IMG/VR virus record: IMGVR_UViG_3300048890_000052 | Location: 1 to 40,090 of that record | Source of the DNA: a virus | DNA length: 40,090 nt | Strand: one strand, 5' to 3' | Shown: positions 36,452-40,090 of the stretch, one piece after another | Numbering within the stretch: the stretch's first letter is position 1 | Layout of the letters: every line of letters starts with the position of its first letter | The notes under the pieces: model-generated | Databases searched by the model: none | Told to the model about the DNA's origin: nothing | What the model saw: only the letters and a program-made list of their open reading frames with translations | Program-made: the position numbers and the translations under genes

Positions 36452-37732
36452 ATGGCAAAGATCGACATTCCCGGCCTGGTCATCAAGACCCGCGGCGCCC
36501 GCGTCTACCATTATTGGCAGCCGTCGGCCGCGCTGCGCAAGGCGGGCTGGACGGCCCTCACCCTCGGATCCGACCTGCGCACCGCCATGAAGCTGGCCGA
36601 GGCGCAGAACGACAAGGTCGAGGAGTGGCGCAGCGGCGGCGCCAAGCCCCGCCAGGTCAGGAAGTTCATCGCCGGCGGCACCGTCGACCAGCTGATCGCC
36701 CGCTTCAAGGCGCTGCGCTATCCCACGATCAAGCCCAGCACCGAAAAAACCTACAACTGGGCCCTGGGCGCGATCAGCAAATGGGCCGGGCCGGAGAAGG
36801 TCGCCCACATCGATCGCAACCGGGTACGCAAGCTGCGCGACGTGCTGCTGAAACCCGACAGCTTGACCGGCATCGTCAGCCTCAACCGCGCCAACGGCAT
36901 CATGCGCGTGCTTTCCACGCTGATGAAATTCGCGATCGACGAAGGCTTTTTGCAGCAGGACGCCCGCAACCCGGCCTCCGATCACAATGTCCCGTCGGCG
37001 GATCCACGCCATCAGGTCTGGTCGCCCGCCGCCGTCGACCTGATCGTCGCGGCCGCGCTCGAGGCGGGCCAGCCCGGGCTGGCGCTCGCCATCCTGCTCG
37101 CCCGCGAATGCGCGCAGCGCGAGGGCGACCTCATCAAGTTCCCGATCAGCAAATGGGCCGCCATTCCCCGCCACAAGCTCGAGGCCGACGACTGGGAGCG
37201 CATGGCCGAGCCCGGCCCGGACGGCACCCGCGACGTGCGCGGCGTGCGCCTGCGCCAGGGCAAGACCAATCGCTGGATCGAGGTGCCGATCGTCGGCGAC
37301 ACCCGCCGCCTGATCGAGGACGCGATCGCCGAGGCGCGCCAGGACGGCACCACCGTCCTGCTGCAGGAGCGCCGCCAGGACGCCCAGGGCGAGGCCGTGC
37401 GCGTGCCGTGGACCGGAACACGCCTGCAACGCGCCATCGCCGCCCTGCGGCCACTGGCGGCCGCCAGCGCGCGCGAAAATGGCGATGAGGATCTCGCGGC
37501 CGAGATCGAGGATCTGCAATTCCGCGACCTGCGGCGCACCGCCGTCGTCTGGCTGGGAGAGCTCGGCATCGAGGACCACCTGATCGCCGCGATCACCGGC
37601 CACAATCTTGACCAGACCAAGCAGATCCTCGAGACCTACATGCCCCGCAATACCAAGATGGCCGGCAAGGCGATCGCGCTCCGCCTCGAGCGCGACCGGA
37701 CGACGCCGGCGACGAAGGAGAAGCAGGCGTGA
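36452..37732 (+). CDS. int: Tyrosine integrase (426 aa)
   Basis: C-terminal catalytic signature FRDLRRTAV (Arg), AITGH (His), ILETYMP (Tyr). N-terminal SAM-like region. Adjacent to a tRNA-derived attP candidate. Confidence 0.9.
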   Translation: MAKIDIPGLVIKTRGARVYHYWQPSAALRKAGWTALTLGSDLRTAMKLAEAQNDKVEEWRSGGAKPRQVRKFIAGGTVDQLIARFKALRYPTIKPSTEKTYNWALGAISKWAGPEKVAHIDRNRVRKLRDVLLKPDSLTGIVSLNRANGIMRVLSTLMKFAIDEGFLQQDARNPASDHNVPSADPRHQVWSPAAVDLIVAAALEAGQPGLALAILLARECAQREGDLIKFPISKWAAIPRHKLEADDWERMAEPGPDGTRDVRGVRLRQGKTNRWIEVPIVGDTRRLIEDAIAEARQDGTTVLLQERRQDAQGEAVRVPWTGTRLQRAIAALRPLAAASARENGDEDLAAEIEDLQFRDLRRTAVVWLGELGIEDHLIAAITGHNLDQTKQILETYMPRNTKMAGKAIALRLERDRTTPATKEKQA

Positions 37733-37926
37733 CCGAGGCGCAATTCCGCCAGCGCTTCGACGCCGATCAGCGCGACGGCAAGATGACATGGGTAGAGGGC
37801 GCCATCGCCAAGGGCATCGCCGTCGGCAGCGGCACCGCCAACGGCAAGGGCGTGATCCTGCTGCGCGGTGGCGGCCATATCCCGCTCGAGGACGCCGCCT
37901 TCACCACCGCCCCATGGGACGTCTGA
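37729..37926 (+). CDS. Hypothetical protein (65 aa, GTG start)
   Basis: GTGA overlap with the integrase stop. No motif recognised; an excisionase role cannot be supported from the sequence. Confidence 0.4.
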   Translation: MTEAQFRQRFDADQRDGKMTWVEGAIAKGIAVGSGTANGKGVILLRGGGHIPLEDAAFTTAPWDV

Positions 37927-37930
37927 GGCC

Positions 37931-38155
37931 CTAGCGCTCATCATCATTGTGATGATGATGCCGCCCGCCATGCTCGGCCGCCGGCTGGATTGCGTCGCGC
38001 ACCACCCGGTGCACAGCCTGGAACAGATAATAGAATTTGCCCGGATCGATCCGATTGCGCGGATCCAGCCCGCCTATCAGGTCGCCGAGCCCCTCCATCG
38101 CGCCCAGCGCCAGGCTGTTCCTCTCCTCGGCCTCGAGCTTCTGCCTGCGGGTCAT
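37931..38155 (-). CDS. Hypothetical protein with His-rich C-terminus (74 aa; longer starts at 38203/38284 possible)
   Basis: MTRRQKLEAEERNS...EHGGRHHHHNDDER. Convergent with the int operon. Lies between int and attP. Confidence 0.35.
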   Translation of the reverse strand: MTRRQKLEAEERNSLALGAMEGLGDLIGGLDPRNRIDPGKFYYLFQAVHRVVRDAIQPAAEHGGRHHHHNDDER

Positions 38156-38220
38156 GAAGCGTCGTCCATTGACGAAAAACCGCAGCCGAGCTAGTGCGCC
38201 CATCGCCGGTCGACCCGGAG

Positions 38221-38414
38221 CCCGTTGGAATTCCAACGGGGACAATGTTGGAACTTTATTTGCATTTTGCAAAATTCTCCGCATTTTTCAATAACTTGCG
38301 GGTGTAGCTCAATGGTAGAGCAGCAGCTTCCCAATGTGCCTGCAACATGAGATTTCAACGAGTTATCTCGGGGATTTGTTCCAACATTCGTCAGTATTGC
38401 CTTGATGTTGGAAC
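38221..38414. other. attP-like recombination region
   Basis: The tRNA-Gly 5' half is flanked by the 20-bp perfect palindrome CCCGTTGGAATTCCAACGGG (38221-38240), ATGTTGGAAC (38245-38254), GTTCCAACAT (38378-38387) and ATGTTGGAAC (38405-38414). It is AT-rich and has an IHF-like TTCAATAACTTG. It lies about 0.5 kb from int. Confidence 0.6.
38298..38334 (+). tRNA. Truncated tRNA-Gly(CCC): 5' half only (acceptor 5' arm, D arm, anticodon 5' stem and loop); attP core candidate
   Basis: GCGGGTG-TA-GCTC-AATGGTA-GAGC-A-GCAGC-TTCCCAA. The downstream sequence cannot form the anticodon 3' stem or a T arm. Confidence 0.7.
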
Positions 38415-38441
38415 GCATCGTCGGGGCGATATGGCTTTTCC

Positions 38442-38732
38442 CTAGAGGCTGCCGCCAGGGTACATCTCGATCAGCACGGCATCGACCAGGACATAGGTCG
38501 TGCTCATCACGTCGCCGCCGAGATAAACCGCGAACTGCCGGCGACGGTCGCGCCCAGGCGCCGCCAGTGGCGGGATGGTCGCCCGCGTCGCCGCCTTCAC
38601 ATCGTCGGGCTGATCCGCGATCATCGCCTCGACTTCAGCGACCATGGCTTTCCGCGCGGCCGTGGTGGAGGCCGCCAGCCGCTCAGGCTGGTCCACCGCG
38701 TCCATGACGCGCTTGATGGTCCAGCGGATCAT
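38442..38732 (-). CDS. Hypothetical protein (96 aa) downstream of the tail fiber, possible fiber chaperone
   Basis: ATGA overlap with the tail fiber stop. Last gene of the long minus-strand transcription unit. Function inferred from position only. Confidence 0.45.
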   Translation of the reverse strand: MIRWTIKRVMDAVDQPERLAASTTAARKAMVAEVEAMIADQPDDVKAATRATIPPLAAPGRDRRRQFAVYLGGDVMSTTYVLVDAVLIEMYPGGSL

Positions 38733-40061
38733 GTGAGCGGCGCCGGCACCGCCTGCACAAAGCGAGCGTCTTTATACAGCAAGTCAATATAGCCAGAACA
38801 CGCAATACCGTTGCGCAGTGTAGTCTTTACGCCAAGATTGGGCGGCGCAATGTAGTTGACAGGTGAAGCGGTAGTGGGGACGGGTGAACTATCTCGGCTG
38901 CACAATATCAAACGTTCTGTCAGCGCAGGCAGTGCGTTACTTGCCACTGTTGCGTTGCTGTTCCGTAGAATTTGGCCGCCCGACATGCGAACAGAAAATT
39001 CTTGTGTGCCGGTAAGGGCATTGGCTTCCACAATAATCCGGCACCGGATAGGCGTAGTATTCTGGATTACCGGGTAACGAGTTGTTCCGGTCTGGTACTC
39101 ATGGAGTTCAATAGCGTCATTAGCGGTAGGCGTGCCGCTAATCGTCATCCGAACACATGTCAGGTCTGTTCGACCCAGCAAAGTATTAAGATACGTGTTG
39201 GCTACTTGGGAAAGTGTTACCGTCACGTTGCCGCTGATGCTGCCAGCTAATTCCATGCCGTCCGGCACACTGCCGACAACGGAGGCAGTGCCGGTCTTGG
39301 TAAGGCTATCGGTACCCGTTGCTCCCTCCGAGAATGGGTTTTTGTTGAGGTTCGCGGCCAGCCCGACCGTGGGATAGGCGCCCGCGCCGAAATATGCCTG
39401 ATATACGTCAGCCTTGCTGCCAATGCGCAACGGCGTGGCACGAAACAGCGCCGCGATCTGCGGAGCCATCATCTTGCCTTCGAGGTAGGCACCATAATAG
39501 CTCTCATGGGTTCCGTCCTTCGTGGTCGCAAACGCTGCGCCGCCCGTGCCCCCGATCGGAATGCCGGTCGTGGATGCAGGATCGATGGTCGCGAGATAGT
39601 GTTTGATGACCTTCACGTCCGTCTGTGTCTTGCACCAGTCTTCAAGACGCGAATTGATAGAGCCGATATTAGCCGCCGTGGTCGCACTTGCGCCGGTCCC
39701 GATCGGGGGAACATCATTGACGAGAAACAATTTTGCCCCCGCCGTCCGGCAGGCATTGATGACCTTACGTAGAGAGGCAAGATGCGCGGTGTCGTCGACA
39801 AGCGAGTTGGTGCCGACCTGTATCCACAGCACTACGTTATCGCCTGCGGCTGCGCGCGCCGTCACGCGAGCTACGATCACTGCCACATTGGTATCATGCG
39901 CAAAACCCAGCACGGTCGCCGTACCGGAGCCATTATTAGCGGCTGTCGTCGTAGTATTGTTGCAGAGCGCGCCGTTAACACCGCAGTTGTCGGTCGCGCT
40001 GTCATATTGGTACTCGACACCGGCCAAACCGAGCGCCCAAAATGCAAAGCTATCCGCTGCA
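38729..40061 (-). CDS. Tail fiber with SGNH/GDSL esterase domain, C-terminal segment (joins 1-179; total 503 aa)
   Basis: SGNH blocks are present: GDS (in the 1-179 part), VGTNSL (GxN-type block III), DGTHES (DxxH block V). Visibly lower GC than the rest of the genome. Confidence 0.8.
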
Positions 40062-40090
40062 TCCCCGCCCGCAAGCTGGGATTTACTGTC
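40062..40090. repeat. Terminal overlap copy 2 (identical to 1-29)
   Basis: Exact 29-nt identity with the window start. Confidence 0.95.

Follow-up and report, generated by a model that had tools for sequence, protein, structure and literature searches.

The 5′ half of a tRNA-Gly(CCC) gene as the probable attP core of a temperate phage predicted to rebuild its host tRNA from the 5′ side

We propose, with a probability of roughly 0.9, that a 37-nt segment of a phage genome, identical to the 5′ half of a bacterial tRNA-Gly(CCC) gene, is the attP common core of a temperate phage that rebuilds the tRNA-Gly(CCC) gene of its host from the 5′ side. The host is probably a member of the Sphingomonadaceae. 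The window (the whole stretch of DNA analysed, 40,090 nt) is a complete circular phage genome, in which the attachment region and its neighbourhood comprise the following features:

36452..37732, + strand: tyrosine integrase, 426 aa (match to PHROG 1, integrase, at 3e-24)
37729..37926, + strand: small ORF of 65 aa overlapping the integrase stop codon (gene call)
37931..38203, − strand: small ORF of 90 aa, located past the integrase gene and before the core (gene call)
38221-38240, no strand assigned: P-arm repeats, palindromic pair CCCGTTGGAA/TTCCAACGGG (repeat search)
38244-38254, no strand assigned: P-arm repeat, direct copy AATGTTGGAAC (repeat search)
38259..38287, + strand: weak candidate promoter TTTGCA-N17-CATTTT, at the position of host tRNA-Gly promoters
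38286..38298, + strand: IHF-like motif TTTCAATAACTTG (consensus WATCAANNNNTTR), its last base being tRNA position 1
38298..38334, + strand: probable attP common core, the tRNA-Gly(CCC) 5′ half (a relative has the same 37-mer at attP, attL and attR)
38328-38334, + strand: likely crossover region, the anticodon loop TTCCCAA (identity with the host stops exactly at CCCAA)
38353..38365, + strand: IHF-like motif TTTCAACGAGTTA, 18 nt after the core
38378-38388, no strand assigned: P′-arm repeat GTTCCAACATT, inverted (spacing the same in L049, L004, L040 and L041)
38405-38414, no strand assigned: P′-arm repeat ATGTTGGAAC (spacing the same in the same four loci)
38442..40090, − strand: last part of the late-gene block, next to the P′ arm (gene calls)
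38442-38732, − strand: 96-aa ORF of the late-gene block (gene call)
across the window ends, − strand: 503-aa tail-fibre-like protein of the late-gene block, with weak GDSL similarity

The stop codon of the integrase gene lies about 570 bp upstream of the fragment, on the same strand. Although its match to Pfam PF00589 (4e-5, 23.9 bits) falls under the cut-off of 27.1 bits, the protein has the catalytic pattern of tyrosine recombinases, R...K...HxxR...H/W...Y, and the residues invariant among 29 homologues include R223, K271, R361/R362, H384 and Y396. The homologues come mostly from Sphingomonadales. Sequence comparison found no relative of the integrase in the PDB, no close integrase was found among cultured phages in GenBank, and a tblastn search of 50,697 phage records at E<=1e-5 returned four matches, none of them to a pelagiphage. 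Of the two small ORFs that follow, the first has a counterpart at the same place in related phages, with a sequence that is not kept (poor alignment), and the second, which converges on the integrase gene, encodes a histidine-rich C terminus; a promoter-like TTGAAA-16-CAAAAT (38291..38264, − strand) is directed off the core towards it. Neither ORF gave a significant Pfam match or any PHROG match, the corresponding small ORFs of the relatives gave no significant Pfam match. No excisionase candidate could be named among the small ORFs beside the integrase. The GC content is approximately 0.58 over 38001-40090, an interval spanning the att region and the 503-aa tail-fibre-like gene, and 0.63-0.70 elsewhere.

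The circularity of the genome is evident from the last 29 nt of the window, which repeat the first 29 nt, and from two contigs that span its ends, one of 40,188 bp from JGI and an independent one of 18.5 kb from Logan. The path to the right of the fragment leads across the ends through the 503-aa tail-fibre-like gene and the lysis genes to the tail genes at the window start. Since these contigs read across the window ends, both flanks of the fragment are phage DNA, which bears on the possibility that the window is chromosomal and the fragment an attL scar left by another element. The fall of the GC content to 0.58 in the last 2 kb would suit such an origin; however, contigs from two sources cross the ends with the 29-nt overlap, and the upstream flank carries phage arm repeats instead of a host promoter, so that we consider a chromosomal scar very improbable.

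The fragment itself, GCGGGTGTAGCTCAATGGTAGAGCAGCAGCTTCCCAA, occurs once in the window, on the + strand, and spans the tRNA from its first acceptor base (position 1) through the whole anticodon loop. It is identical to positions 1-37 of the tRNA-Gly(CCC) genes called by ARAGORN in two contigs of a related phage (L050 and L051), and by direct reading the same 37-mer was found to head full-length tRNA-Gly(CCC) genes in L119 and in GenBank record MT835913.1. Because the same 37 nt head complete genes elsewhere, the fragment is a genuine and exact 5′ half; the earlier note, which had described a perfect 5′ half up to the anticodon loop and proposed a comparison with host tRNA genes, was right in this. 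It had also seen neither a 3′ half nor a T arm, and the tRNA searches that it suggested bear this out: ARAGORN called no tRNA in the window, the Rfam models at gathering threshold gave no match over the whole window, and on the fragment the Rfam tRNA model scored 19 bits against a gathering score of 29, with a good alignment in the 5′ half only. By both ARAGORN and the Rfam tRNA model, the T arm and the 3′ strand of the acceptor stem are absent after the fragment. A further remark, on the pairing of GCAGC after the loop, needs one correction: the native 3′ strand of the host anticodon stem is GCTGA and not GCTGC, pair 27:43 being G.A in the natural tRNA.

A chance match was considered and rejected, as none of 100 shuffled versions of the window matched the 37-mer, even with 3 mismatches allowed. 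The intact tRNA-Gly(CCC) gene of MT835913.1 (15290-15363; L134 701-774), with the identical 37-mer, has a host-type promoter upstream; the record, labelled 'Bacteriophage sp.', derives from human faecal samples and is probably bacterial DNA or a prophage flank.

On both sides the core is accompanied by short repeats. The 40-kb window holds three exact copies of TGTTGGAAC, each of them less than 170 bp away from the core. Together with the palindrome CCCGTTGGAATTCCAACGGG they make up five arm-type repeats confined to 38221-38414, of which 38221-38254, towards the integrase, contains three and 38378-38414, beyond the core, contains two. The layout is kept in at least 11 related phages. The final P-arm repeat stops 43 nt before tRNA position +1, the first IHF-like motif has tRNA position 1 as its last base in the relatives as well, and positions −13 to −1 are conserved in 11 phage P arms; beyond the core, the second IHF-like motif of the relatives starts 18 nt past CCCAA (an offset identical in L049, L004, L040 and L041), with the first P′ repeat 12 nt behind it and the inverted partner of that repeat after a further 21 nt. 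Within the second motif, TTTC and TT are invariant columns of alignment A2. The arm repeats co-vary among phages as GTTGGAA, GTCGGAA and GTTGGAT. Such fixed spacing with co-varying repeats is the signature of a working lambda-type attP, at which, to judge by the motifs, the integrase would bind the repeats and IHF would bind both IHF-like sites. Since the fragment adjoins a tyrosine integrase gene within this conserved arm-site architecture of a circular phage, the name attP, given to it in the earlier note, is justified.

Evidence for the use of the site comes from related phages that share its layout and whose integrases are 56-58% identical; for these, attP, attL and attR were all found. 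At attL, a host promoter is followed by the 5′ half and the right (P′) arm of the phage; at attR, the left (P) arm of the phage is followed by the 5′ half and the host 3′ half, which together form a complete tRNA-Gly(CCC), and then by host genes. The rebuilt tRNA predicted earlier, with a phage 5′ half and a host 3′ half behind phage DNA, is therefore what is seen at attR of these relatives. In one of them, P0009 (integrase 58% identical), the 37-mer of the window recurs without change in all three forms. Its attP is present in a 41.5-kb contig, in which the integrase precedes the late genes (L049), and also in L052; its attR (L050 and L051) consists of the P arm, the 37-mer and GCTGACGACGGGGGTTCGATTCCCCTCACCCGCTCCA, with the tRNA-Gly(CCC) called by ARAGORN and host genes next to it; and its attL (L047) consists of a host promoter-like region with TTGACG, the 37-mer and the P′ arm. 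L047 and L050/L055 represent the two ends of one 41,698-bp contig. As in target-rebuilding attP sites, the core of the window phage is a contiguous end-fragment of a tRNA gene, and the attR of P0009 contains the full 74-nt tRNA.

A second relative, P0013 (integrase 56% identical), forms a tandem double lysogen in Sphingomonadales bacterium 56, in which attL (L044), the attP between the prophages (L004) and attR (L003) are identical through CCCAA and diverge exactly there. In this assembly (VFEL01000001.1, ~350-430 kb; L004, L043 and L044) the two prophage copies are located ~39.3 kb apart with an intact attP-like junction between them. Mobile-element-like DNA is situated just downstream of the rebuilt tRNA (L003 11812-21374 and L005; VFEL01000001.1 and VFEK01000001.1) and encodes an S24 repressor, Phage_CP76, ParB and a DNA polymerase III beta subunit; the tRNA of this organism may have an element on either side and so consist wholly of element-borne halves.

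Further chromosomal loci are in line with these junctions. The chromosome of Sphingobium sp. YG1 carries an attL with the exact 37-mer of the window, and the prophage beside it encodes an 807-aa protein 74% identical to that of the window phage. At another locus, L017, the D loop reads AACGG in the attR 5′ half and AATGG in the attL 5′ half, and because the two differ, the attR 5′ half must have arrived with the element and the crossover must lie 3′ of the D loop. This position and the end of identity with the host at the 3′ edge of the anticodon loop would both fit a crossover within that loop. The junctions also bear on the alternative that the fragment is a decayed remnant of a phage-borne tRNA gene with no part in integration. 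tRNA genes are frequent in phages and the 3′ half is absent here, as expected of such a remnant, but the break after CCCAA falls exactly at the point of the relatives' attL and attR junctions, and conserved arm-type repeats flank the fragment on either side; decay as its origin is accordingly hard to credit.

For the window phage itself, neither attL nor attR was found; in one metagenome scan for an attR of its type (pattern: end of the P arm, 5′ half and G), the sole match was an unrelated attP (L046). We therefore infer the integration of this phage from the junctions of its relatives. In Logan data from SRR35925357, contigs end 27 nt into the tRNA fragment (L002) or exactly at tRNA position 1 (L011); these breaks suggest a branch of the assembly graph at a repeated tRNA and are not proof of integration.

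Taken with the proposed role as attP core, the arrangement suggests the following course of integration. The integrase would bind the three (A)TGTTGGAAC arm-type repeats of the P arm and the two of the P′ arm, five in all, with bends at the two IHF-like motifs aiding the formation of the complex. The complex would then recombine with the host tRNA-Gly(CCC) gene, the exchange most probably taking place in the 7-nt loop TTCCCAA at the right edge of the identity block, where the cleavage positions would then lie. Because the phage carries tRNA positions 1-37 and not the 3′ part, the prophage would land upstream of the tRNA. At attL, the host promoter would remain in front of the 5′ half of the host gene, now continued by the P′ arm; this would be a dead fragment, reading for this phage from the host promoter through the 5′ half into TGTGCCTGC. 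At attR, the P arm would lead into the 5′ half brought by the phage, to which the 3′ half and the terminator of the host gene are joined, reading ...CAATAACTT followed by the full tRNA ...CCCAAGCTGA... The tRNA-Gly(CCC) at attR would have the sequence of the native gene, including the natural G27.A43 mismatch, with phage DNA upstream.

How the rebuilt tRNA is transcribed is less evident. The earlier note had seen no convincing −10 at the right distance upstream of the fragment, and our promoter scoring produced just the weak candidate TTTGCA-N17-CATTTT, which is speculative because its score (7/12) is near the phage-arm average. The hexamers TTGCAT (38260-38265) and TTGCAA (38267-38272) and the palindrome TTTTGCAAAA (38265-38274), to which the earlier note drew attention, were placed correctly there. 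The best promoter scores averaged 6.2 of 12 in phage P arms versus 7.1 in host regions (Mann-Whitney p=0.007). Most host regions upstream of attL have TTGAC or TTGCC at −38 to −45, a feature missing from the phage P arms, and TTGCAT at −38 is found in the P arm of the window only. The lower scores and the lack of a TTGAC-type −35 would suit a reading in which integration takes the course given above and yet attR yields little or no hybrid tRNA, lysogeny effectively knocking down tRNA-Gly(CCC) and the host surviving via tRNA-Gly(UCC) reading GGG; in E. coli, tRNA-Gly(CCC) is dispensable. A consensus sigma-70 scan of the + strand upstream of the fragment also found no promoter, but since the same scan misses the native host tRNA promoter, this result carries no weight. 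Furthermore, 6 of 11 P arms have CTA(A/G)NN at −19 to −14, resembling the host −10 elements CTAATC and CTAAGC. If the crossover falls in the loop, the phage 5′ half would be kept through every cycle of integration and excision, and its perfect match up to position 1, with the co-variation of the D stem between CCC and UCC types, would then require selection on a functional, and hence expressed, hybrid tRNA. A silent hybrid is thus unlikely in our view, though of the alternatives considered it deserves the most attention.

We infer instead that the hybrid gene is transcribed, the source being a weak promoter of the phage or else transcripts that read on from the integrase operon. Read-through is possible in those relatives in which all upstream genes are co-oriented; in the window phage simple read-through is less likely, because the − strand ORF and a terminator-like hairpin of arm repeats intervene between the integrase and the core. 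In a broader and doubtful proposal, to which we give somewhat less credence than to a silent hybrid, the rebuilt tRNA would be under phage control (weak P-arm promoter or integrase operon) and GGG decoding would become prophage-dependent, and at the same time the strong host promoter orphaned at attL would drive a fusion transcript that starts with the 5′ tRNA half and enters the prophage, where it would be antisense to the last genes of the late block (orf96 and the tail-fibre-like gene). If true, the attL fusion transcript could be an inherent regulator of the integrated state, or a marker of it.

Conventional tRNA sites with crossover in the anticodon loop are reportedly those designated class I by Williams in 2002. 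The window phage resembles them in its lambda-like tyrosine integrase, its arm-type sites, a core of about 40 bp bounded by the loop, and one junction at which the tRNA is rebuilt, but its site is their mirror image, with identity running from the loop back to tRNA position 1. As the identity block reaches the 5′ end, the rebuilt gene is separated from the host promoter, while the host terminator stays with it. [quoted passage not shown] Another departure from the 3′-half rule among phages integrating in tRNA genes is the tRNA-dependent lysogeny of Fionnbharth and related actinobacteriophages, with a core of ~10 bp, no rebuilding of the tRNA and complementation by a complete phage tRNA (PMC10865867). 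The window phage does not belong to this type, because its 37-bp core rebuilds the gene and it has no complete tRNA of its own.

The closest likeness is with pelagiphages. HTVC021P, 022P, 105P, 109P, 120P, 121P and 201P have a partial tRNA 5′ end in attP (bioRxiv 10.1101/410191), and in HTVC028P a 40-bp core identical to the 5′ end of tRNA-Asn is located downstream of the integrase, with integration experimentally verified (PMC8477408). The window phage shares with them an attP downstream of the integrase, a core made of the 5′ part of an alphaproteobacterial tRNA, almost the same core length (37 bp versus the 40 bp of HTVC028P), and a phage-borne 5′ part that completes the disrupted host tRNA. 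The pelagiphages described there differ in being podoviruses of SAR11 hosts that target tRNAs Cys, Leu, Arg and Asn, and in having experimentally verified junctions, those of the window phage being deduced from sequences of its relatives. The likeness is one of layout and not of lineage, because no pelagiphage integrase matched at E<=1e-5. The word 'promoter' does not occur in bioRxiv 10.1101/410191, and a mention of promoters or arm-type sites was met in neither pelagiphage account, for PMC8477408 in the text available. The 5′-half layout is known but uncommon, and its precedents with verified junctions are the pelagiphages (10.1101/410191; PMC8477408). The Islander pipeline, for its part, also takes account of 5′ fragments that have been displaced to the upstream side of their target gene (PMC4383910).

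When 185,579 genomes, one representative per species, were scanned for the 5′ half followed by a base other than G, 27 loci were obtained. Approximately 25 of these are 5′ halves cut off at CCCAA, and a TTGAC-type host promoter precedes most of them. They were distributed over Sphingomonadales, Rhodobacterales, Rhodospirillales, Hyphomicrobiales and Burkholderiales. Some members of the integrase family use tRNA-Gly(UCC) likewise, and in L057, L063 and L086 the integrase gene is on the P′ side. In L119 (4375-4448; IMGVR_UViG_2890671501_000001), an intact tRNA-Gly(CCC) behind a host-type promoter has the gene of a 45% identical integrase on its 3′ side, and this conventional orientation hints that the integrase family has switched which half of the tRNA it carries.

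Several other loci merit mention. L046 (383-430; MDTG01341329.1, a 39-kb metagenome contig) is an AT-rich, phage-like contig with its own tRNA-Gly(CCC) 5′-half attP, in which a perfect IHF consensus, TATCAATAACTTG, ends on tRNA +1 and the arm repeats, TTTGTACA, are unlike those of the window; the phage is seemingly unrelated to ours, and the far side of the site reads like the start of an integrase gene. In L017, L024, L037 and L039, only 1-4 kb separate an attL with the truncated 5′ half from an attR with the full tRNA-Gly(CCC), and no relative of the window integrase could be detected in any of the four; they represent either the remains of decayed prophages or small elements that are mobilised in cis. 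Sphingobium aromaticivastans (L026, 2168-2196, − strand) has a tRNA-Gly(CCC)-like sequence preceded by an IHF-like motif of the phage type; the sequence lacks G39, has an altered T arm and is not called by ARAGORN, and it may be a decayed hybrid tRNA.

With these sites the 5′-half layout gains a second, sizeable lineage besides the pelagiphages, represented by an uncharacterised integrase clade that uses tRNA-Gly(CCC) and tRNA-Gly(UCC) in Sphingomonadales. For annotation, this means that prophage and island mappers and tRNA pipelines expecting displaced 3′ fragments can misplace the borders of such elements. For the biology of the lysogens, it raises the question of how the host tRNA is expressed once the prophage has replaced its promoter region, and of the fate of the orphaned host promoter.
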